From contig CM075990.1 in the NCBI GenBank assembly GCA_038087875.1, positions 3,226,001-3,290,000 of the forward strand: a stretch of DNA of 64,000 bases, in the 5' to 3' direction. The position numbers and the translations under genes are program-made. Within the stretch, counting starts at the first letter, position 1. Every line of letters begins with the position of its first letter. Positions 10,523 through 60,038 of the stretch are shown piece after piece. The notes beneath the pieces are model-generated. The model was not told where the DNA came from and did not search any database. It saw only the letters and a list, made by a program, of their open reading frames with translations. Source of the stretch: Malacoraja senta (lineage: Eukaryota).

Positions 10523-11262
10523 GATATAATTTATATATACTGATATATATATTTATATGTACTGATATAACAAAAATATTCAGTATATATATATATACTG
10601 AACTTTTTTGTTGCTTATTCTGGGTTTAACAATGTGTACATATTCCATGGTGCTGCTGCAAGTAAGAATGTCATTGTCCCGTGTCGGGACAAAGGCCATT
10701 AAAACACTCTTGTCTCTTGCCACCACCTTGATTTACTTCCCAGTAATAGCTGATAGAGTAGATAAGTGGACAGTCAGGCCATTCTCAAGGTCTGAAGCTG
10801 GATATTAGATGCTGTTAAGTTTTTCCACCATGCAGAGCTATTGAAGTCTCATTTTGACTTCACAGCTCAGTGCAAGAGGGATTTGGATAAGATAAACTTA
10901 TTCAGAGCATCAAACAACCTTGGAAGCACAAGCTTTCCAAAGTTCCCCTTAAGTTATGATGTTTCGGAGATGGGTCCTTTCTTCCGACTGGACACAAAGT
11001 GCTGGAGTTACTCAGTGGGTCAGGCAGCATCTCTGGAGAAAAAAGATGGGTGGCATTTCGGGTTGGGACCCTACTTCAGACTCGACATAAAGTGCTTGAG
11101 TACATCAGAAAGTCAGGCAGCATTCACTAGGTTAAGCAGGATGGCCAAAATGTAGAAACAAAGAACTGCAGATGCTAGATCAAAATGCAGAACTGTCCTG
11201 TAGAAGGGTCCAGACCCGAAACATCGCCCATTTGATTCTCCAGGGATGCTGCCTGACCCGCT

Positions 11263-12258: not shown

Positions 12259-12466
12259 TTCAAGAAGGAACTGCAGATGCTGGAAAATCGAAGGTAGACA
12301 AAAATGCTGGAGAAACTCAGCGGGTGCGGCAGCATCTATGGAGCGAAGGAAATAGGCAACGTTTCGGGCCGAAACCCTTCTTCAGACTGCTACAGGGTGG
12401 GGGTGGGGGGCAGGAAGAAGAAAGGAAGAGGAGGAGCCAGAGGGCTGAGGGAGAGCTGAGAAGGGG
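12259..12466 (-). mobile_element. Penelope 3' UTR/pLTR fragment with intact hammerhead core
   Basis: Core at 12357-12385 (minus); 15-bp TSD ATTCAATCATGGCTG 12244-12258 / 12467-12481. Confidence 0.88.
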
Positions 12467-12679: not shown

Positions 12680-14830
12680 ACATAGAAAATTAGGTGCAGG
12701 AGTAGGCCATTCAGCCCTTCGAGCCTGCACCGCCATTCAATACGATCATGGCTGATCATCCAACTCAGTATCCCGTACCTGCCTTCTCTCCATACCCCCT
12801 GATCCCTTTAGCCACAAGGGCCACATCTAATTCCCTCTTAAATATAGCCAATGAACTGGCCTCAACTACCCTCTGTGGCAGAGAGTTCCAGAGATTCACC
12901 ACTCTCTGTGTGAAAAGTTTTTCCTCATCTCGGTCTAAAGGATTTTCCCCTTATCCTTAAGCTGTGACCCCTTGTCCTGGACTTCCCCAACATCGGGAAC
13001 AATCTTCCTGCATCTAGCCTGTCCAACCCCATAAGAATCTTGTACGTTTCTATAAGATCCCCTCTCAATCTCCTAAATTCTAGCGAGTATAAGCCAAGTC
13101 TATCCAGTCTTTCTTCATATGAAAGTCCTGACATCCCAGGAATCAGTCTGGTGAACCTTCTCTGCACTCCCTCTATGGCTATAATGTCCTTCCTCAGATT
13201 TGGAGACCAAAACTGTACGCAATACTCCAGGTGTGGTCTCACCAAGACCCTGTACAACTGCAGTAGAACCTCACTGCTCCTATACTCAAATCCTCTTGCT
13301 ATGAAGGCCAACATACCATTCGCTTTCTTCACTGCCTGCTGCACCTGCATGCCTACTTTCAATGACTGGTGTACCATGACACCCAGGTCTCGCTGCATCT
13401 CCCCATTTCCTAATCGGCCACCATTTAGATAATAGTCTGCCTTCCCGTTTTTGCTACCAAAGTGGATAACCTCACATTTATCCACATTATACTGCATCTG
13501 CCAAACATTTGCCCACTCACCCAGCCTATCCAAGTCACCTTGCAGTCTCCTAGCATCCTCCTCACAGCTAACACTGCCCCCCAGCTTAGTGTCATCCGCA
13601 AACTTGGAGATGTTGCTTTCAATTCCCTCGTCCAGATCATTAATATAAATTGTAAATAGCTGGGGTCCCAGCACTGAGCCTTGTGGTACCCCACTAGTCA
13701 CTGCCTGCCATTGTGAAAAGGACCCGTTTACTCCTACTCTTTGCTTCCTGTTTGCCAGCCAGTGCTCTATCCACATCAATACTGAACCCCCAATACCGTG
13801 TGATTTAAGTTTGTATCCTAATCTCTTATGTGGTACCTTGTCGAAAGCCTTCTGAAAGTCCAGATACAACACATCCACTGGTTCTCCCCTATCCACTCTA
13901 CTAGTTACATCCTCGAAAAATTCTATAAGATTCGTCAGACACGATTTACCTTTCGTAAATCCATGCTGACTTTGTCCAATGATTTCACCACTTTCCAAAT
14001 GTGCTGCTATCCCATCTTTAATAACTGACTCTAGCAGTTTCCCCACTACCGATGTTAGACTAACTGGTCTGTAATTCCCCGTTTTCTCTCTCCCTCCCTT
14101 CTTAAAAAGTGGGGTTACGTTTGCTACCCTCCAATCCTCAGGAACTACTCCAGAATCTAAAGAGTTTTGAAAAATTATCACTAATGCATCCACTATTTCT
14201 GGAGCTACTTCCTTAAGTACTCTGGGATGCAGCCTATCTGGCCCTGGTGATTTATCGGCCTTTAATCCATTCAATTTACCCAACACCACTTCCCGACTAA
14301 CCTGGATTTCACTCAGTTCCTCCATCTCCTTTGACCCGTGGCCCCCTGCTATTTCCGGCAGATTATTTATGTCTTCCTTAGTGAAGACGGAACCAAAGTA
14401 GTTATTCAATTGGTCTGCCATATCCTTGTTCCCCATGATCAATTCACCTGTTTCTGACTGCAAAGGACCTACATTTGATTTAACTAATCTCTTTCTCTTC
14501 ACATATCTATAAAAACTTTTGCAGTCAGTTTTTATGTTCCCTGCCAGTTTCCTTTCATAATCTATTTTCCCTTTCCTAATTAAGCCCTTTGTCCTCCTCT
14601 GCTGGTCTCTGAATTTCTCCCAGTCCTCTGGTATGCTGCTTTTTCTGGCTAATTTGTACGCATCATCTTTTGCTTTGATACTATCCCTGATTTCCCTTGT
14701 TATCCACGGATGCACTACCTTCCTTGATTTATTCTTTTGCCAAACTGGAATGAACAATTTTTGTAGTTCATCCATGCAGTCTTTAAATGCCTTCCATTGC
14801 ATATCCACCGTCAACCCTTTTAGAACTAAT
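12680..14830 (-). mobile_element. 5'-truncated CR1 LINE (~2.15 kb) inserted in an antisense V-SINE (12590-12670 / 14830-15059)
   Basis: Continuous RT ORF plus complete 3' UTR. Confidence 0.97.
12925..14830 (-). pseudogene. CR1 ORF2 reverse transcriptase, endonuclease missing
   Basis: [56 protein letters not shown]; the first ~65 aa of the tracked 699-aa ORF are SINE read-through; frameshift near 12935. Confidence 0.95.
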
Positions 14831-15293
14831 TGCCAGCAGCGCTGTCCAACACACACTAGGGACAATTTATAATCTTCACCAAAGCCCGTTAACTTATTAA
14901 TCTGTACGTCTTTAGAGTGTGGGAGGAAACTGGAGATCCTGGAGAAAACCCACAGGGAGAAGGTACAAACTCCGTCCAGACAGCACCCGTAGTCAGGATC
15001 GAACCCGGGTCTCTGGTGCTGCAAGGCAACAACTCTACCCCTGCGCCACCATGTCGCCCAATAGTGAAAGGCCAGGACAGAGTGGATGTGGAAGTGGATG
15101 TGGAGAGGATGTTTCCACTAGTGGGAGAGTCTAGGACCAGAGGACACAGCCTCAGAATTAAAGGCCGTACCTTTAGAATGGAGATGAGGAGGAATTTCTT
15201 TCGACAGAAGGTGGTGAATCTGCGGAATTAATTGTGGAAGCCATGTCAATGGGTATTTTTAAAGCCAGAGATATACAGATTCTTGATGAGTAA

Positions 15294-23389: not shown

Positions 23390-24470
23390 TTCATTGAGAC
23401 TGAGAGTCAGGGGAGAGGGTAACGAGAGGCGTAGATGGTGGTGTGGGGAGATGTAGGACAAATGAATGAACGATACGCAATAAAGTTACAATGATTAAAG
23501 GAAGCTAGGCCATTGGTATCTGTTTGCTAGGTAAGAACGGGATCCTGCTGTGACTTGGGTGGGGGAGGGATGGAGAGAGAGGGAATGCCGGGGTTACTTG
23601 AAGTTAGAGAAATCAACATTCATACCACTGGGCTGTAAGCTGCCCAAGCAAAATCAGAATCAGAATCACACTTTATTCGCCAAGTATGTTTTGCAACATA
23701 CGAGGAATTTCACTGGCCAGGTCAGTCATACAATTAAAAGCAACAGATCACTCAAAACACATTTTAACATGAACATCCACCACAGTGACTCCTACACATT
23801 TCTCACTGTGATGGAAGGTGAAATAAAGTTCCTTTCCCTTAGTTCTTCCTCGATCGTGGGCCTGGAGCCCTCCGTTGACGGGACGATCTTGACTCCCGTA
23901 GCCGGCGGCGTTCGGGCCCTCCGCGTCGAGGCGATCAACTCCTGCATCGGGGGGATGTCAGCTCCCCTGCGGCAGGCGATCAAACCTCACGTCGGGGCTG
24001 GACGAACCTTCCGCGGCGTTGGAGCTCCCGACTAGCCTCTCCCGAGACTGCGAGCCCTTGATGGTAAGTCCACGGTGGTCACGGTGGGAGCGATCCCAGG
24101 CAAGGGATCAGCTCTGATGTTAAGTCCGCGCCCCGCGGTGGGGCTCACGACAGTCCGAGGCGGCTTCCAGCTCCATTGATCGAAGGTCCGCAGAACCCGG
24201 AGAATGTGATCGGAAAATTGATCACATCTCCGGGAAGGTAGGAACCTGAAAAAAAAGTTTCCCGGATCCCCTCCCCCCTCCCCCCCCACAAAAAACAAAC
24301 CGAGCAACATTAAAGCACACTTTCAACAAACGCTAAAAAAAAAAAAATTAAGGTGAAAAACGAACCATGGTGTTCTTCCAATTTGTGTTTTAGGCTCACT
24401 CTGGCAACGGAGGAGGCCTAGGACAGAGAGGTGGGATGGAAAGGGAATTCAAGTGTTTGACAACCGGTTC
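23390..24470 (-). mobile_element. Penelope endonuclease/3' UTR fragment interrupted by a GC-rich non-autonomous element (23655-24360)
   Basis: Antisense GIY-YIG C-terminal sequence (LGSLQPSGMNVDFS) on either side of the insert. Confidence 0.7.
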
Positions 24471-29580: not shown

Positions 29581-30404
29581 ACTTCAACATTGAAGCAAAA
29601 AGTCTATTGGATTAATATCCCTGATGTATGTGTAGGGAGTTAAAAGCTGCCAACAGAACCAAGCTGGCTGCCACTATTACCATCCAGCATTAAGTATATT
29701 TCAAGTATCATTAAAATTCCTCAGCCTTTGCAAAATAGTCTAAATTGCATCTTTAAAAAGTTGATGAGAATGAACATCGCAGGCAGTTTTTACAGGACCC
29801 ATAAAAATTGGTAGCTGCATTACTTGCTGTATTCGCCTCCACGCAGAATAATGCTCCAATTAGTCGACTTCTGTTTTATTTCAAGGCAGAATATGTGCCT
29901 TTGTTGAAAATGAGTTATGACTGTTTCTGAGTTCCACAAGATGGCATGTGTATCTATTTAATTGGGAAACAGTTGTGAATAATTCTTTGTTTGAACAGTT
30001 AAAGCGCCTCTGTTAGCAAGTGATGGTAATCAGATTATCGATTGGAATTAACATAAATGAGTGCTGTGTTTTTTTTTTAGTCTTCTGCTTCTTGTACTTG
30101 CAGTGAGAATCATAACAGTTTACATGCTTCTGGTTAACCCTATTGCCCCGTTTAGCAGCGAAAAAGAAAGAATTTGCAATAATGCAATGCCGATCACAAC
30201 ATCAATATGTTCCGAAGTGCCACAGGGCCAATTAAGTATTTGTGAAGTGTTCTAATGAGGGTTATTTCGGGGAGGGAATGGTAATTTCAACACACGGCAA
30301 GATCACACAAAAACTGAATGAAGAGAATTGAATGAACTGAGGAGGTAGTTGAGACTGGGGACTATCCCAACGTTTAAGAAACAGTTAGACAGGTACATGG
30401 ATAG

Positions 30405-30903
30405 CTGATCTACATCGGTGAGACCAAGCGGAGGCTTGGCGATCGTTTCGCCGAACACCTCCGTCCGTCCGCATTAACCAACTTAACCTCCCGGTGGCTC
30501 AGCACTTCAACTCCCCCTCCCATTCCGTATCTGACCTCTCTGTCCTGGGTCTCCTCCATGGCCACAGCGAGCAACACCGTAAATTGGAGGAAATGCACCT
30601 CATATTCCGCTTGGGCAGTCTTCATCCTGGGGGCTTGAACATTGAATTCTCCCAATTCTGCTAGCCCTTGCTGTCCCCTCCCTTCATCAGCCCTCTGGTT
30701 GTCTCCTCCCTCCCCCAGCCCTCGGCTCCTCCTCCGCCTTTTTCCTTTTTTCCTTTCTTCTCCCCACCCCCTATCAGTCTGAAGAAGGGTTTCGGCCCGA
30801 AACGTTGCCTATTTCCTTCGCTCCATAGATGCTGCTGCACCCGCTGAGTTTCTCCAGCATTTTGTGTACCTTCGATTTTCAGCATCTGCAGTTCCTTCTT
30901 TAA
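30405..30903 (+). mobile_element. 5'-truncated Penelope/Poseidon element: GIY-YIG endonuclease C-terminus, 3' UTR and hammerhead
   Basis: LIYIGETKRRLGDRFAEHL/SVR...PVAQHFN...RKLEE...HPGGLNIEF* (30405-30664, one frameshift); core at 30779-30806; TSD TACATGGATAG 30394-30404 / 30904-30914. Confidence 0.93.
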
Positions 30904-31601
30904 TACATGGATAGGGCAGGTTTGGAGGGACATGGACCAAGCGCAGGCAAGTGGGACTAGTGTAGCTGGGACATGTTGGCTGGTGTGGGCAAGTTGGGCT
31001 GAAGGGCCTGTTTCCACACTGTATCGCTCTATGACTATAATAATGGTGACCCCTAACGTCATACACTATATTCCTTTTCTGCAGAGATGCTGTCTGACCC
31101 GCTGCGTTACTCCAGCTTTTGTGTCTATCTTCGAAACTATCAATCAGTCTGACTTTAGACTTTAGAGATACAGCGTGGAAACAGGCCCTTCGGCCCATCG
31201 AGCCCACGCCGACCATCGATCGTCACACACCAGTTCTATCCTACTCCCTTGGGACAATTTACAGAAGCCAATTAAGCTACAAACCGGCACGTCTTTGGAG
31301 TGTGGAAGGAAACCACACGCGTGGTCACGGGGGAGAGCATACAAACTCCATACAAACAGCACCTCTAGTCAAAATCAAACCCAGGTCTCTGGTGCTGTAA
31401 GGCAGCAACTCCAAGTTCATTCATTATAGCAGCAAAATTAGGCCATTCGGCCCATCAGGTCTACTCCGCCATTCAGTAATGTCTGATCCATCTTTCCATC
31501 TTAACCCCAGTCTCCTGCCTTCTACCCATAATCCCTGACACCCGCACTGATCAAGAATCTGTCAATCTCCACTTTAAAATTAATGATTTGGCCTCGACTG
31601 C

Positions 31602-32503: not shown

Positions 32504-33234
32504 CAGATGAGGTGGAAGCAGATCCGATGTCAATGCTTAAAGACATTTCGGCAGACGCACGGGTGGATAGGAAATTGAGGGATAGTAGAACAAGGAACTG
32601 CAGGTCCGGCTTACTAAAAAAAGACACAAAGTGCCGGAGGCTCAGACAGCATCTCTGGAGAACATGGACAAGGAACAAGGAACTGCAGATATTGGCATAC
32701 AAAAGGAAAGACACCAAGTGCTGGAGTAACTTCAGGCGGCCGCATCTCTGGAGAACATGGATAGGGCAACATGGAACTTCTTCTTCTTTTCGTGTCCATT
32801 GTTACAAATGTTGGCCTCGCTGTCATCGTCCGTCCTGAAAAGGACGCAAGCTTCTGGCGACGATCAGATGAAGCCATCACTAGTCGCTATGGATGATGGT
32901 GGTAGCAGAATTAGCTCAGGATACTTCCGGTTTCCAGCCCCGCGACGTGGACGCTTCTGCTGTGGGGCCAACAAGGAACTGCAGATGTTGGTTTACAAAA
33001 AAAAAGACACAAAGTGCTGGATTAACTCAATGGGTCATGCAAGAACCAGGATCCTTTGAGGGATATAGGCCATATGTAGGCAGGCACGCAGCTTAAAATG
33101 GCATCTTGGTCAGCACAGACATTGTTGGTCGAAGGGCCTTTCCCTGTGCTGTACTCTTTCACGTTCTAGGTCCAATTGGGACAGTTTTTCCCTTCCCAGA
33201 CACAGGAGCACCTACTTCCCCTCTGTTATCAGAC

Positions 33235-34867: not shown

Positions 34868-35439
34868 ACGCGGCCTTGTCGGCTTCAGGTGCTGCGGACG
34901 CCTGCGGGAAATCGGCCGTTCCAGCCGTAGTTACGGCCTCCGGTGAGGGATGCGGCCGTTCCAGGTGGCCCAGCTGCTGGAGGACTCTCCCGACGCCGGG
35001 GCTACATCACCCGGCGAGAACGGCCAGGATCATCGGGCCTTCGTAGAGGCAATAGCGGGGGCTTCATTTGGCCTGACTTTTTTGGGGTGAACTGGGGCTG
35101 GGGACTGGACATTGTGCCTTCCCCCACAATGGAATCATTGTGGGGGGATGATTTTTGTATGTAATTGTTTGTAATTGTATTTGTTAGTCTGTGTTCAAGA
35201 TGGCGGTCGGAGGGGAGAGTGGACGCTGGCGTTAAATTGCCGCTGCTCTCTCCTCAAATTGTGCTTCTGATTTTCTTTTTTTGTGTTTTTGGAAGGAATT
35301 CTGTCCCTGATTTATGTATTGGTCTTTATAACCTATTTTTTTTAAATTCTGATTATATGTTTTCTATAAATCTCTGTATGGTGTCCTTGAGACCTCGGTA
35401 TAAGGCGCCCGTAAATAAAATCCATTATTATTATTATTA
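34868..35439 (+). mobile_element. 5'-truncated GC-rich non-autonomous element with L2-like tail
   Basis: Homologous to 51595-52127; tail AAGGCGCCCGTAAATAAAATCC(ATT)n. Confidence 0.75.
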
Positions 35440-37224: not shown

Positions 37225-37875
37225 GTAGAGTCTCATAGAGTCATAGAGTGATGCAGTGGGGAAACAGGCCCTTCGGCCCAACTTGCACACACCGGCTAAC
37301 ATGTCCCATCTACACTAGTCCCACCTGCCAGCATTTGGTCCATATCCCTCCAAACATGTCCTATCCATGTACCTAGTATGTAGTAAAAAAGAACTGCAGA
37401 TGCTGGTAAAATCAAAGGGAGACACAAAATGCTGGAGTAACTCAGCGGGACAGGCAGCATCTCTGGAGAGAAGGAATGGGTGACGTTTCGGGTCGAGATC
37501 CTTCTTCCGACTTCTTTGTGTCTACTCTGTCCATGTACCTGTCTAACTGCTTCTTAAATGTTGGGATAGACCCTGCCTCAACTACCTCCTCTGGCAGCTT
37601 GTTCCATACACCCACCACCCTCTGTGTGAAAAGGTTACCTATTAAATCTTTTCCCCTTCACCTTAAACCTATGTCCTCTGGTCCTCGATTCACCTACTCT
37701 GGGCAAGAGACTCTGTGCATCTACCCGATCTATTCCTCTCATCATTTTATACACCTCAATGAGATCACCCCTCATCCTCCTGCGCTGCAAGGAATAGAGT
37801 CCCAGCCGAGTCAACCTCTCCCTGTAGCTCACACCCTAAAGTCCTGCCAACATCCTCGTAAATCTTCTCTGTGCC
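37225..37875 (-). mobile_element. CR1 3' fragment containing a Penelope-derived insert (37375-37526)
   Basis: MSYRERLTRLGLYSL...RTRGHRFKV; insert TSD CT(A/G)TCCATGTACCT. Confidence 0.88.
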
Positions 37876-41449: not shown

Positions 41450-41542
41450 TCTGAAGAAGGATCTTGACCCGAAACGTCACCTATTCCTTCGCTCCATAAA
41501 TGCTGCCTCACCTGCTGAGTTTCTCCAATATTTTTGACTACC
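41450..41542 (+). mobile_element. Hammerhead-headed Penelope-derived mini-element (93 bp)
   Basis: Starts TCTGAAGAAGG, ends CTACC; TSD TTTGA(A/T)AATGACG 41437-41449 / 41543-41555. Confidence 0.85.
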
Positions 41543-43029: not shown

Positions 43030-43480
43030 AGGAAAGATTGAAAAGACTAGGCTTGTATTCACTGGAGTTTAGAAGGATGAGGGGGCATCTTATAGAAACA
43101 TAAAATTATAAAAAGGACTGGACAAGCTAGATGCAGGAAAAATGTTCCCAATGTTGGGCGAGTCCAGAACCAAGGGCCACAGTCTTAGAATAAAGGGGAG
43201 GTCATTTAAGACTGAGGTGAGAAAAAACTTTTTCACCCAGAGAGTTGTGAATTTATGGAATTCCCTGCCACAGAGGGCAGTGGAGGCCAAGTCACTGGAT
43301 GGATTTAAGAGAGAGTTAGATAGAGCTCTAGGGGCTAGTGGAGTCAAGGGATATGGGGAGAAGGCAGGCACGAGTTATTGATAGGGGACGATCAGCCATG
43401 ATCACAATGAATGGCGGTGCTGGCTCGAAGGGCCAAATGGCCTCCTCCTGCACCTATTTTCTATGTTTCTATGTTTCTAT
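43030..43480 (+). mobile_element. CR1 3' fragment
   Basis: MFPMLGESRTKGHSLRIKG...LWNSLP plus (TTTCTATG)n tail. Confidence 0.9.
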
Positions 43481-43556
43481 GAAAGGTCCCGACCCAAAAC
43501 GTCACCTATTCCTTTTCTGTAGAGATGCTGCCTGACTCGCTGAGTTACTCCAGCAC

Positions 43557-43770
43557 TAGGGGAGTTAAAAAGTTTTGCAACCGGGAGATGGCGTAGGCCA
43601 AGACGGACTGAGCATAGGTGTTGAGCGAAACGATCGCCAAGTCTGCGCTTGGTCTCGCCAATATATAAGAGCCCACCCTGAGAACAATGGATACAGTCGA
43701 CGAGGTTGGAGGAGGTGCAAGTGAATCTCTGCCTCACCTGAAAGGACTGTCGGAGTCCCTGGATGGAACT
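43557..43770 (-). mobile_element. Penelope GIY-YIG endonuclease fragment
   Basis: FTCTSSNLVDCIHCSQGGLLYIGETKRRLGDRFAQHL. Confidence 0.88.
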
Positions 43771-43919
43771 ACTATGGAGTAAACCAGCCTCTTCTGATCC
43801 TTGCGACACAATGCGAAATGGGCGATCGATGGTTGGCGTGGACTCAATGGGCCGAACGGCCTGTGTTTTGTGCTGTAAATTTAAACTAAACCATCGAACA
43901 TCTGAGTTTGTCAGTGTTT

Positions 43920-44091: not shown

Positions 44092-44973
44092 TGAGTTTGT
44101 CAGTGTTTGGCATTAAAAACTGGGAACAAACAGGACAGTGGGTAGGTGGGGGGGGGGGGGTTGCAGAGACCACCACCAAAACTTCTAAACAAGACATGAC
44201 ACTAAAGAACAAGCTTCCCCTGGTTGCCGTTTGATAAATAGATTTTTCTGTAGCTCCTCGCGAAATCCTTGGTAACCCAACACAAAGCACGGTGGATGGG
44301 AGCCTGGGAGACACTGCATATGTAATCCTAAATAACAGACTTTTAATGATCACATAATCACTTTCTGTTGTTATGTAAAACTGTAACCTTAAGCACTTCT
44401 CAGCAATGCACATTTCCATTGCACTCTAACCACTTTCAGCCAGCGTGCCGCAGTTCCTTCTGTTCCCCATATGGCCGCTTTGTTTCGGTAATGGCTGATT
44501 ATGCGCCCCCTCTGTTGCCGCTCACCCCCCCACAGTGCAGATAAACCATTGGTTCCACTATTCCTCAAAGCTTCCTCGAAAAGGGCTGCAAGTCAATGCC
44601 AGGGGACGGGGCGCGATCTGGCTCGGGAGGTTGCCAATTCACGGGCCGATTCAATATCCTCCGGGATATTTACGGGACCGGGCATTCACCTCAGATGGGA
44701 GAAAGTACCCGGTCCTGCTGAGCCGGCTCCATCTTTTCGAAAGGGCGGTCAAATGAGCCACTAAAACCCAACCGTGTTTTTTTCCCCCACGAGTCCCCCG
44801 GTTTTATTCCCTTTATGGGGTCAAGGAAAGAGCGTTCACGTCGCGGCCCTGTTTCCACCAATCGTTCCACCACCACGCACAAGAAGCACAAGAAGCATAA
44901 GAACAACTTCTAATCTTGTGTGTGGACTCGTTAAGAAGAAGATTCCCTTTATTTCGACCCGTTACGGTAACTT

Positions 44974-45108
44974 GCGTAGGATGGAACTGCAGATGCTGGT
45001 TTAAACCGAAGATAGACACAAAATGCTGGAGTAACTCAGCGGGACGGGCAGCATCTCTGGAGAGAAGGAATGGGTGACGTTTTGGGTCGAGACCCTTCTT
45101 CAGACAAA
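44974..45108 (-). mobile_element. Hammerhead-headed mini-element, long (~130 bp) form
   Basis: TSD GTTAC(G/T)GTAACTT 44961-44973 / 45109-45121. Confidence 0.82.
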
Positions 45109-45405: not shown

Positions 45406-46050
45406 TACAGTGGCAGCCCCATCCCCTCCAGTACTGTACCCCAGTGTTATACCAGACCTGCCCCACCGGTACTGTACCCCAGTGTTATACAGTGGCAGTC
45501 CCATCCCCTCCAGTACTGTACCCCAGTGTTATACTCCAGACCTGTCCCCACCGGTACTGTACCCCAGTGTTATATAGTGACCGACCCATCCCCACCGGTA
45601 CTGTACCCCAATATTATACAGCAACAGACCTGTCCCCACCAGTACTGTGCCCCAGTGTTATATAGTGACAGACCCAACCCCACCAGTACTGTACCCCAAT
45701 ATTATACAGTGGCAGTCCCATCCCCTCCAGTACTGTACCCCAGTGTTATACAGTGACCGACCCAACCCCACCAGTACTGTACCCCAATATTATACAGTGG
45801 CAGTCCCATCCCCACCAGTACTGTACCCCAGTGTTATACAGTGACCGACCCAACCCCACCAGTACAGTACCCCAATATTATACAGTGGCAGTCCCATCCC
45901 CACCAGTACTGTACCCCAGTGTTATACAGTGGCAGTCCCATCCCTACCAGTACTGTACCCCAGTGTTATACAGACAGACCCAACCCCACCGGTACTGTAC
46001 CCCAATATTATACAACTACAGATCTGTCCCCACCAGTACTGTACCCCAGC
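45406..46050. repeat. 44-bp minisatellite with alternating A/B monomers (88-bp higher-order unit)
   Basis: CAGTGGCAGTCCCATCCCCTCCAGTACTGTACCCCAGTGTTATA and CAGTGACCGACCCAACCCCACCAGTACTGTACCCCAATATTATA. Confidence 0.95.
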
Positions 46051-46579
46051 GTAAGACAGTGGGAAACCTGTAAACTGGAGTACTGTATCCCACTAATAAA
46101 AACAAAAGTTCTGAGACACACCCAAGAAGGTGTCTTACTTTTCCAGTTCAGATGAAGGGTCTTCCACCTAAAACCTACCTTCTATTTACCTAAGAATTAA
46201 ATTCTAAATTCTATGAACCACTGTTGTATAACGTTAGTACCTCCACCAATGTAAAGCACTTTGGCCAACGAGAGTTGTTTTTTAAATGTGCTATAGAAAT
46301 AAAAGTGACTTGACTATTTCTTTGTCTCCAGATGCTGCCTGACCAGCTGAGATTATCTGGAATTGTTGGTTTTCTTTCAGATTTCTAGCATCTGAATGTA
46401 ATTGATCTATATCTAATGTAGACCATCATGATGTCGGTATAAACATACGTCTGGAGTACTGTCGACCAGTGTTATTCATTGTACCCATTGGTAACTGGTA
46501 CAGGTGACAATAAACTGACCTTGAAATCTTGAAACCTTGGTACTGCACCCCAATGTTATGGAGAGTTGCACCATTCAGC

Positions 46580-47115: not shown

Positions 47116-48285
47116 GATAAATCAGTAGCAGCAATGATTTAAAGCAGAGAATGGTGTTAAGTTTTTAAGTTTAAGGATACAGAATGGAAACAGGCTTTTC
47201 AGCCCTAAGCTAAATATCGAACACCCGTTCACTGCTCTCTGCTTTGTTCTATACCTTTTCATCCCTTTCGTTTCCCTCTCCCCCTGACTCTCAGTCGGAA
47301 GAAGGGTCTCGACCCGAAACGTCACCCATTCCTTCTCTCCACTGATGCTGCCTGTCCCGCTGAGTTACTCCAGCACTTTGTGTCTATCTTCGGTGTAAAC
47401 CAGCATCTGCAGTTCCTTCCTACACCTATTCCTTTTAGTTTAGTTGGGTTTGGTTTAGAGCACGGAGACGCGCCCTTCGGCCCACCAAGTCCGCGCCAAC
47501 CGGCGATCCCCGAACACCAGCACGCCTGGGACAATTTCAAACTTTACCGAAGCCAACTAGCCTACAAACCTGTACATCTTTGGAGTACAATCTACGCAGG
47601 TCACGGGGAGAAGGTACAAACTCCATACAGACAGCACCCATGGTCAGGATCGAACACTGTAAGGTGGTAGCTCTACTGCTGCACCACCCTCTTTCCCAAG
47701 AGATGCTGCCAGACCCGCTGAGTTACTCCAGCAGTTTGTGTTCATACCCATTCACACTAGTTCTATGTTATTTCACTTTCCCATTCACTCCCTACACACG
47801 ATGGGCAAATAACAGAGGCCAATTAACATACAGACATATACTGTACGTTTTGGGATGTGGGAGGAAAGTTATCTTGGCATCATATTTGGCATAAACATAG
47901 TGGGCCGAAGGGCCTGTTGCTGTTCTATGTTCTATGTAAACTAGAGCACCCGTGGGAAACCCACACGGTCACAGGGAGAATGTGTAAACTCCACACAGAT
48001 AGCACCCGAGGTCAGGATCGAACCCGGGTCTCTGGTGCTGTGAGGCAGCAACTCTACCAGCCCCATCTGTTCTAATGGACCACTTGTGGGTGTTAGGGTG
48101 ATGACATAAGGAATAGAAGTAGAATTAGGCCATTCGGCCCATCAAGTATAGTCCACCATTCAATCATGGCTGATCTATCTCACCCTCCTAACCCCGTTCT
48201 CCTGCCTAACGGTGGTCGATCGGATTATTTTCTGGTGGGACGCAAACTGTCTCTGGTAGGCATCACAGTAGTCAATTACAGCAAA

Positions 48286-48380
48286 GGTAGACAAAAATGC
48301 TGGAGAAACTCAGCGGGTGCAGCAGCATCTATGGAGCGAAGGAAATAGGCAACGTTTCGGGCCGAAACCCTTCTTCAGAC
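48286..48380 (-). mobile_element. Hammerhead-headed mini-element (95 bp), intact core
   Basis: Perfect 15-bp TSD GTCAATTACAGCAAA 48271-48285 / 48381-48395. Confidence 0.9.
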
Positions 48381-48457
48381 GTCAATTACAGCAAATGTTT
48401 AGTTAAGTTAAGTTAAGTTTAGTTAAGTTAAGTTTAGTTTAGTTTAGTTTAGTTTAA

Positions 48458-50858: not shown

Positions 50859-50954
50859 AGGTAGACAAAAATGCTGGAGAAACTCAGCGGGTGAGGCAGG
50901 ATCTATGGAGCGAAGGAAATAGGCAACGTTTCAGGTTGAAACCCTTCTTCAGAC
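50859..50954 (-). mobile_element. Hammerhead-headed mini-element (96 bp)
   Basis: TSD TGAAGCCA 50851-50858 / 50955-50962. Confidence 0.85.
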
Positions 50955-52615: not shown

Positions 52616-54129
52616 AGTTCAATGGTTCAAAGGCTCAATGGTTCTTTGGAATCACAGGTACAGAAGTACGGTGTCTGAAGAAGGGCCTCGACCTGAAACG
52701 TCACCCATTCCTTCTCTCCAGAGATGCTTCCCGTCCCGCTGAGTTACTCCAGCTTTTTGTGTCTATCTTCGGTGTAAACCAGCATCTTTCCGACAGTGAA
52801 ATTCTTTCCGCTGAAAGACTTGTGTAGAGTAGTGCAGGCTGGGCATATCTGGGATTGCAAAGGGACTTGAGAGTGCTGGTGCAGGATTCCCAAAAGGTTC
52901 ATTTGCAGGTTGAGTCAGTAGTAAAGAAGATAAATGAAATGACCGAAGAGGACTAGAAAATAAATTAAAGGAAGTAATTAATGCTGAGGCTTTATTTGGT
53001 GTTGGTCAGACCACATTTGCAATATTGTGAGCAGTTTTGAGCCCCGTATCTGAGGAAGGATGTGCTGGCGTTGTAGAGGGTTGAGCAGAGGCTTACAAGA
53101 ATGATCCTGGGGATGATGAGGTTAACGTATCAGGGGTGTTTAATGGTTCTGGGCCTGTACTCGCTGGAGGGCATGGAGGGACTTGCTGGAGGGAAGATCT
53201 CATTGAACCCTACCAAACAATGAAAGGCCTAATAAAATAAAGTATGGCCATTACTAAGCACAATCTCCGATTAGTACAAAGTGCGGAGAAATAGTCCACT
53301 GACACGGCGTGCAAGAGTCGCCAGGTTTTGCGCCATTTTCCGAAGTCCAGTTCGGCCCGCACGCCCGGTCTCCTTGAGCGGGTCCCGATCCAGGCGAGCC
53401 CCAGGCTGCTGCAGGGCCTCCAGCCGTCGCCTCTGTCTGGATCGTCCAGTGAACTGTTGTCCCTCTCCGCGCCCGGCCGCCTGCAGCCCATTGTGCCCCA
53501 GGGAGGGAGGGGAGCCTCCCGCAGCCCACCCTGAGGCCGCAGAAGGAAAATAAGACCCCGGTTCACTCTCCCACGAAGTTAAAGTTCACAAGCAACTTTA
53601 AAGAAGATAGACACTAAGAGCCGTAGTCACTCAGCGGGTCAGTCGGCATCTCTGGAGAAGAGGATTCGTAGACATTTCGGGTCGAGACCTTCCTTCAGAC
53701 TGAGAGTCACGGGAAAGGGAAACGAGAGATATAGATGGTGATGTAGAGAGATATAGAACAAACAAATGAAAGATATGCAAAAAAGTAACGATAATAAAGG
53801 AAACAGGCCATTGGTAGCTGTGGGCTAGGTGAGAACTAGTTACAGACAATGAAACTCACCAGGACAACATTGAGACTCGTGCAACGGCTAAGGTGGGGGT
53901 GGGACGGAGATAGAGGGGATGCAAGGGGATGCCTGAAATTAGAAAAATCAATATTTATACCGCTGGTGGGAATTTAGGGAGTTAGGCTGAGGATCTCCGC
54001 CCCCATCTCCGTGGAGAGGTTAGTCTTCTTGTGTATTGAATTAAATTCCATCTGTTACCCGGTGACTGACAATGAGCAGGGTCTCGCTGCCAGAGTCCAG
54101 GACAAACTAGACGCTCAATTTAATCACCA

Positions 54130-54490: not shown

Positions 54491-55108
54491 CAAATAAGCC
54501 CCGAACTACATAGACCTAGGGCAGTGTTTTTAGCTTTTGCACTATTAATGTTTAATTTTTTATATACATATGAACCTTTTTTTGTTTAGACTTTAGACTT
54601 AAGAGATACAGCGTGGAAACAGACCCTTTGGCACATATAGTCCGCGCCAACTAGTGATCACCATGTACAGTGTCACACACACACTAGAGACAATTTATTT
54701 ACAACTTACCAAAGCCAATTAACCTACAAACCTGTACGTCTTTGGAGTGTGGGAGGAAACCGGAGAACCCATGCAGGTCATGGGGAGAAAATATAAACTC
54801 CGTACAGACAGCACCCGTAGCCAGGATCGAACCGGGGTCTCTGGCGCTATAAGGCAGTGACTCTACTGGTGTCCCACCCTGCCGCCTAATAGATGTTTAT
54901 TATGGTATCTAGAGAATAATATGTTCAGTCTGAAGAAGGGTCTCGACCCCAAACGTCACCTATTCCTTCGCTCCATAGAAGTTGCCTCACCCACTGAGTT
55001 TCTCCAGCATTTTTGTCTACCTTCGATTTTTCCAGCATCTGCACTTCCTTCTTAAACACTACCATGTTTACACATCTAGTTGGGCTGCTGCAAGTAAGAA
55101 TCTCTGCA

Positions 55109-56245: not shown

Positions 56246-56339
56246 GTACACAAAAATGCTGGAGAAACTCAGCGGGTGCAGCAGCATCTATGGAGCGAAG
56301 GAAATAGGCAACGTTTCGGGCCGAAACCCTTCTTCAGAC
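56246..56339 (-). mobile_element. Hammerhead-headed mini-element (94 bp), intact core
   Basis: TSD AAGTCTACTCCGCCG 56231-56245 / 56340-56354. Confidence 0.9.
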
Positions 56340-59946: not shown

Positions 59947-60038
59947 CTGAAGAAGGGTTTCGGCCCGAAACGTTGTCTATTTCCTTCGCTCCATAGATGC
60001 TGCCACACCCGCTGAGTTTCTCCAGTACTTTTGTCTAC
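59947..60038 (+). mobile_element. Hammerhead-headed mini-element (92 bp), intact core
   Basis: CTGAAGAAGGGTTTCGGCCCGAAACGTT...GTCTAC; CGTGG repeated on both sides. Confidence 0.85.

Follow-up and report, generated by a model that had tools for sequence, protein, structure and literature searches.

The window, by which we mean the whole 64-kb stretch of DNA that was analyzed, holds many copies of a short unit headed by a hammerhead motif. The focal copy is a 95-nt insertion (48286..48380, minus strand) with an exact 15-nt target-site duplication (TSD), found at 48271..48285 on its 3' side and at 48381..48395 on its 5' side. When position 0 is set at the G two bases 5' of the CTGAAGA core, and unit coordinates are counted from there, this insertion extends from position 0 to the first of two 3' sites. 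Insertions of similar length lie at 56246..56339 (94 nt, minus strand, exact 16-nt TSD sharing the first G), 50859..50954 (96 nt, minus strand, 8-nt TSD with microhomology at the 5' junction), 41450..41542 (93 nt, plus strand, 13-nt TSD with one mismatch) and 59947..60038 (92 nt, plus strand, a 5-nt repeat only). The preliminary description had reported these five as insertions with flanking direct repeats: all five are present and four have TSDs of 8-16 nt, but the repeat at 59947-60038 is within the chance range. It had also described a ~130-nt form with the same 5' end, and this too is present, carrying a tail that reaches 3' site 2, as a ~132-nt subfamily B copy at about 44974..45108 (minus strand, 13-nt TSD with one mismatch, three additional T at the 5' junction) and a ~130-nt copy at about 54928..55057 (plus strand), although the TSD of the latter is weak. 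All seven stretches were recovered at the coordinates first reported for them. Flank repeats scoring at least 8 were seen in 7 of 15 tested copies and in none of 210 mismatched flank pairs; those of 59947 and ~54929 score 5, as do 20 of the 210 mismatched pairs.

The family amounts to 59 BLAST clusters, or 60 profile matches, in the 64-kb window, ~9% of which is occupied by Penelope-related module copies. The hammerhead head is reached by 34 of the 59 copies; the remaining 25 start within the unit, many as head-to-head partners. Eight head-to-head pairs of the module are found (7002/7004, 19309, 21623/21630, 23218/23221, 24918/24924, 44019/44033, 49705/49708 and 49842/49852), and position -1/0 or the stem II palindrome is used at several head-to-head junctions. 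The Rfam miRNA matches in the window are fold-backs of these pairs and were rejected. A 130-nt copy at 37380-37530 (minus strand) has an 18-nt inverted piece of the element between its TSD and position 0.

The origin of the unit is apparent from a 499-nt, 5'-truncated, ORF-bearing copy with an 11-nt TSD at 30405-30903 (plus strand). This copy consists of the 3' end of a Neptune-type ORF (30405..30664; the C-terminal part of a GIY-YIG domain, frameshifted, with 82% identity to a Leucoraja erinacea protein), a 112-nt pyrimidine-rich UTR with CA at its end just before position 0 (30665..30776; a candidate pseudo-LTR (pLTR) intron end and initiator-like site), the unit from position 0 to 3' site 1 (30777..30870), and a 33-nt tail up to 3' site 2 that holds the 3' arm of an outer stem (30871..30903). 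The UTR is also kept in a subfamily A copy with a 15-nt TSD (12259..12461, minus strand) and, in full, in a subfamily B copy (53597..53960, minus strand) that has a donor-like GTGAGT at 53859, 160 nt 5' of position 0. The focal copy differs from the copy at 12259 by one substitution, and the copy at 56246 differs from the unit of the ORF-bearing copy by no substitution and one additional T in a T run. The short units are the pLTR, or terminal module, of a Neptune-type Penelope-like element (PLE), consisting of hammerhead, unit and tail, and the earlier attribution to a Penelope RT/GIY-YIG element is supported.

The peptide of 30405-30664 shows matches of 45-85% to the C-terminal ends of RT-EN proteins. 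Its identity to the Leucoraja erinacea protein points to a host that is probably a skate. A piece at 43477-43914 gives a Pfam GIY-YIG match with an E value of 0.0014, below the curated cut-off, and a 65-aa piece gives no match. The nearest longer relatives have a PLE-type RT and a CX2-5CxxC linker, which is present in the nearest homologues P0002, P0003 and P0004; the pieces in the window begin downstream of it. A linker of this kind between RT and EN marks Neptune or Nematis, according to the available text of PMC8557442. By homology the parent may be called Neptune-type, the linker and RT being absent from the window. A search of the window returned no RT piece, and scans of related loci returned no full-length Neptune DNA. 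A second Neptune linker-endonuclease fragment, with 61% identity to a whale shark protein, adjoins an inverted unit at 43555-43779 (minus strand). The ATG frame within the unit is open in subfamily A and closed in subfamily B, and no likeness of the N-termini of long Neptune proteins to any frame in the unit was seen by eye. Pattern scans for the unit gave no match in viral contigs or in prokaryote genome contigs; seven pattern matches in metagenome contigs had unrelated flanks and were discarded as chance matches.

The 34 head-reaching copies divide into 7 in which the upstream pyrimidine-rich UTR is retained, 22 whose start was curated to -1..+2, and 5 ambiguous ones. Even without curation, 17 of the 34 starts fall in a 4-nt window where truncation at the rate found deeper in the unit would place ~1 (P about 5e-18). 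The boundary recurs in at least three subfamilies, and the claim of one shared 5' end, as opposed to random truncation, is upheld by the curated and the uncurated counts alike. The 22 sharp copies all carry G(0), which is partly fixed by the anchoring; A(-1) is carried by 11 of them (P 0.014) and C(-2) by 4, the chance level. Of the 11 A(-1)-bearing copies, 4 have a G at -2, examined as a possible cap-derived additional G. The first base of a sharp copy is therefore either the A or the G of a polypyrimidine-CAG site that lies immediately 5' of the hammerhead.

We considered whether ordinary 5' truncation could give such a peak, either through fast divergence of the UTR, which would hide longer copies, or through microhomology at the junctions. 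Microhomology of 1-4 nt does occur at several junctions, loose ends rich in pyrimidines precede 30773 in 443 reads, and read depth dips across the UTR. Set against this, the TSDs abut the boundary in the 7 of 15 tested copies with scores unmatched in the controls, and the upstream pyrimidine fraction is 0.29-0.69 in the 22 sharp copies versus 0.77-0.94 in the UTR copies. Given TSDs that abut the boundary and flanks without pyrimidine enrichment, missed upstream homology is not the cause, and ordinary truncation is largely refuted at the scale of the window; we regard it as very unlikely.

The boundary was also sought in four public runs mapped onto 30361-30960 (X21, X1, X15 and X8, of which X1, possibly the source of the window itself, is not treated as independent). 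Among the loose ends listed, those with diverse flanks at 30777 comprise 353 reads in X21 (agreement 0.33) and 114 contigs in X1 (0.34), and X15 has 23 at 30776 and 22 at 30778; none of the 6 loose ends listed for X8 lies at 30776-30778. Flank-diverse boundary junctions are found in three public runs of three organisms. Loose ends at 30813, 30863 and 30880 continue in element sequence and were dismissed as alignment effects of subfamily differences. Strand-changing joints of the head-to-head type may be among the joints in this mapping.

The hammerhead of the focal copy (48349..48380, minus strand) is a minimal type-I motif with a CUGAAGA core, an extra A, a 4-bp stem II, a GAAA, a palindromic CG and a 2-bp helix I, and its predicted cut falls between 48351 and 48350. 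It shares its core, the extra base before stem II, G10.1-C11.1 and the palindromic 15.2-16.2 with the minimal type-I hammerheads of metazoan PLEs described in the accessible part of PMC4209133. That text places most metazoan motifs among dispersed single copies "probably related to truncated PLEs"; it differs from the present case in that here helix I has 2 bp and stem II 4 bp, and the ends of the insertions are not mapped in the part available. Across the stems 90.5% of cells are paired, and the covariation score was reached by 87 of 500 shuffles. The forced hammerhead fold lies ~6 kcal/mol above the minimum-energy fold, and none of the 18 Rfam matches in the window is to a hammerhead.

Self-cleavage, or a circular RNA, could in principle set the ends of the unit, and the complete minimal core (core, extra base before stem II, G10.1-C11.1 and palindromic stem III) is indeed exact in 13 of 34 heads. 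The positions of the ends argue against it. The copies start at -1/0, the predicted cut lies at +29/+30, ~30 nt inside the unit, and only 3 of 59 5' ends fall within +26..+34, in agreement with the earlier statement that the 5' end is not at the predicted cleavage site. Helix I, at 2 bp, is short of the 4-5 bp expected for a minimal type-I hammerhead, and reads ending at the cut site are absent in Anolis (PMC11167929). We consider this explanation extremely improbable.

At the other end of the unit, the 3' ends of the 59 copies fall near +89..+106 in 30 cases, at +124..+131 in 22 and at other positions in 7, giving two 3' sites ~35 nt apart; the two preferred 3' initiation points proposed earlier correspond to these. 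In vitro, cDNA synthesis on the Poseidon element of Anolis (PAc) starts at two internal sites that bound a 30-40-nt tail, and its RT requires RNA downstream of these start sites, hammerhead cleavage being dispensable (PMC11167929). The two 3' ends found here match this known Penelope "tail", which corresponds to two internal RT start sites. The likeness to Poseidon extends to the arrangement of two start sites 3' of the hammerhead with the tail between them. Poseidon belongs to a different clade, however; its ORF starts in stem II, whereas the core here has no ATG, and the main text of that study gives 3' ends only and no fixed 5' end (PMC11167929). The tail is a published feature of PLEs (PMC11167929; PMC8557442, in excerpt), and tails and inverted partner copies are standard in them (PMC8557442 and PMC3846280, both in excerpt). 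In 14 aligned copies the middle of the unit is paired with the tail as an outer stem, and since one arm of this stem sits in the tail, the 95-nt copies lack it; covariation is no higher than in shuffles.

All 8 UTR pieces in the window are pyrimidine-rich (0.77-0.97). A YAG ends at position 0 in 6 of them, two old UTR copies reading CAA, and an initiator consensus is likewise fitted by 6 of the 8. Because 6 of 8 fit each, the acceptor and the initiator are inseparable by sequence. The preliminary description overlooked that the boundary is a polypyrimidine tract plus CAG in the same place as the end of the D. virilis Penelope intron: there the pLTR intron extends as far as the 5' side of helix I, as reported in the accessible section of PMC4209133. 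From this sequence context, splicing of the pLTR is predicted in the present element. In D. virilis the transcription start site lies 46 nt upstream of a 75-nt intron, 121 nt before the intron end (PMC2377424, in excerpt). At the AG acceptor of a first intron, capped RNA 5' ends on one or the other of the two bases have been described in barley and are said there to be known in mammals (PMC10762323, in excerpt).

Several expectations for this site were checked. None of the 22 sharp copies shows, by eye, subfamily B exon-1-like letters or an ORF end 5' of position 0, and a spliced template including exon 1 was rejected. A downstream promoter element at its usual spacing was not seen by eye. No splice joint onto 30778 appears among the 15 joints listed. 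A raw RNA run from another organism, consisting of fragmented poly(A) RNA with both strands about equal and of which ~6% was read, has no place where many molecules begin, and its signal looks like read-through. A subfamily B piece at 23398-23653 (minus strand) contains the ORF end and UTR and stops a few bases past the CAG, without a hammerhead; its next five letters match those after a similar motif upstream in the UTR copy at 53597, and a head-to-head pair lies ~100 nt away.

Our main reading, to which we assign a probability of roughly 0.55, is that the 92-96-nt and ~130-nt units are by-products, namely run-off cDNA from template RNA that begins at the AG. Judging by the literature on a related clade, the RT-endonuclease would nick its target and prime cDNA at two internal sites of the module; the biochemistry cited for this step comes from Poseidon, a clade other than Neptune. 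Many template RNAs would begin at the AG of the polypyrimidine-CAG site, an RT started ~95 or ~130 nt downstream would run off the RNA end, and the short, strong-stop-like cDNA would be integrated. Templates beginning further upstream would yield ordinary longer truncated copies. The short copies are probably dead ends, being without sequence downstream of the RT start site. Retroviral minus-strand strong-stop DNA is a short cDNA that is begun internally on a terminally repeated template and continues as far as the RNA 5' end; in the analogy suggested here, synthesis would instead be primed by nicked target DNA and the product integrated directly.

It is possible that cleavage and recapping at the pLTR intron's splice acceptor produce the RNA end; that it arises by initiation at the overlapping initiator-like site seems a little more doubtful, and the position of the D. 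virilis start site, 46 nt 5' of the intron, would by analogy count against initiation at the head (PMC2377424, in excerpt). A mini tandem at 10992..11123 (minus strand), in which one piece stops at 3' site 1 and is fused there to an A(-1) start, with a further head downstream, has the structure expected from a template jump; it is one old, degenerate locus. We tentatively suggest a wider scheme in which Neptune is copied mainly from RNA beginning at the acceptor AG of the pLTR intron, and in which the strong-stop cDNA is usually integrated unchanged and sometimes jumps from the RNA 5' end to another start site or template, giving the head-to-tail and head-to-head joins that are typical of PLEs. 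Against the run-off reading stands the absence of RNA 5' ends at the boundary from the raw RNA run.

The same absence of a start peak would suit a different account of the by-products, in which the template extends further upstream and the RT is arrested at the AG by acceptor-bound splicing factors or by the base of the folded module, or, in a variant, exonucleases trim read-through RNA to a protein-protected module. Both the AG and the first base of helix I fall on the boundary, the site is passed by 7 of 34 copies, and the 130-nt module folds better than expected (z -2.5), the purine run at its 5' side pairing with the tail. This pairing is missing from the consensus fold, however, and the 95-mer folds no better than its shuffles (z 0.15). 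That at least three subfamilies stop within 2-3 nt would also seem to fit the end of a template better than a roadblock. On balance, arrest or trimming strikes us as rather unlikely.

The preliminary description had interpreted the short copies as a discrete retrozyme-like lineage, and had named beforehand a phylogeny in which short copies nesting with long ones would mark them as by-products. The tree was built from 21 short and 7 long copies (28 rows, 93 columns; six of the 34 aligned rows, in which the head is missing, were left out). The short/long label requires 7 changes on it, the maximum for 7 long rows, with a shuffled mean of 6.4 and 500 of 500 shuffles as low. Short and UTR-bearing copies interleave, and the copy at 56246 is without substitution relative to the ORF-bearing copy, which contradicts the discrete lineage within the window. 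A separate short-copy lineage is not supported by this window-scale tree, itself weakly supported (stars on 4 of its 25 inner branches), and a genome-wide short-only subfamily may exist. The earlier statement that Pol III boxes are absent holds for the A box, missing from 9 of 9 copies, and, at one mismatch, for the B box in 8 of 9, one copy having a B box at that stringency. No unit-length array occurs among 31 tandem-repeat rows. The short form is neither a retrozyme nor a SINE.

The non-LTR retrozymes of animals are likewise non-coding, pLTR-derived and hammerhead-bearing, and monomers of them occur, according to the available part of bioRxiv 10.64898/2026.07.22.740005. As defined in that text, however, retrozymes are tandem units each with a hammerhead, whereas the copies here are dispersed and TSD-flanked; the retrozyme unit is bounded by cleavage sites, whereas the present one starts ~30 nt 5' of the predicted cut.

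The same text proposes non-autonomous elements derived from pLTRs, and the short unit might accordingly be imagined as a self-propagating mini-element, one that is transcribed, whether by read-through or from an internal Pol II promoter, and then recopied in trans. In RNA and in three contig sets, the unit is covered several-fold more deeply than the ORF end, a comparison confounded by subfamily mixing, and long copies of an intermediate subtype (41449, 54926, 7002) are absent from the window. Positions +18..+27 from A(-1) in subfamily B fit 8 of 10 letters of a downstream promoter motif (P 0.004), a fit made post hoc to letters that are also fixed by the hammerhead. Against a mini-element, the short copies do not cluster on the tree, one of them shows no substitution relative to the ORF-bearing copy, the tail arm is missing from the 95-nt copies, a related RT requires RNA downstream of its start sites (PMC11167929), and Pol III boxes and, among the 31 rows, unit-length tandem arrays were not found. 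We judge such propagation distinctly unlikely.

In its general features the element resembles the Neptune-clade EN+ PLEs, which have a C-terminal GIY-YIG, a pLTR hammerhead, an optional 30-40-nt tail, head-to-head copies and TSDs of variable length, and whose 5' truncation is described as variable (PMC8557442 and PMC3846280, both in excerpt). Here, in contrast, about two thirds of the hammerhead-reaching copies stop within a few bases at the AG. Its pLTR is also like that of D. virilis Penelope in an intron whose 3' end lies at the 5' side of helix I, and in a helix I of 2 bp (PMC2377424 and PMC4209133, both in excerpt), although splicing is predicted from sequence here and the D. virilis start site lies 121 nt upstream of the intron end (PMC2377424). 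In the literature covered, partly as excerpts and with subscription papers and Repbase/Dfam outside the coverage, we found no description of a 5' boundary fixed at the head of the hammerhead, and the available portions of PMC7561263 and PMC8969392 add nothing on 5' ends. The element class, hammerhead, tail and inversions are already known; within the literature found, the fixed 5' boundary would be the new part.

The 3' start of the RT was mapped in 2024 and the 5' terminus of the template was not (PMC11167929); for the regeneration of the pseudo-LTR and the retention of the intron, the accessible text of PMC2377424 sees no obvious mechanism. Young, TSD-flanked copies with two defined ends make the question of the template 5' end tractable. 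If the RNA does begin at the AG, the mini-copies would map its 5' end in genomic form and would record the first step of pLTR formation. Many "solo hammerhead" or SINE-like consensus entries in cartilaginous fishes may be dead-end products and not independent families.

Other features of the window include an HDV-like (CPEB3 family) ribozyme match at 32904-32980 (minus strand; 34.8 bits, the gathering score being 35) and, at 44817-44850 (plus strand), a partial match to the same family with 26.9 bits. The sole tRNA in the window, a tRNA-Arg called by ARAGORN at 34897-34979 (plus strand), lies apart from the unit copies and is possibly a SINE head. A 730-aa open frame at 12925-15117 (minus strand) resembles a CR1-type LINE reverse transcriptase, and a 44-nt minisatellite of 15 copies occupies 45406-46061.
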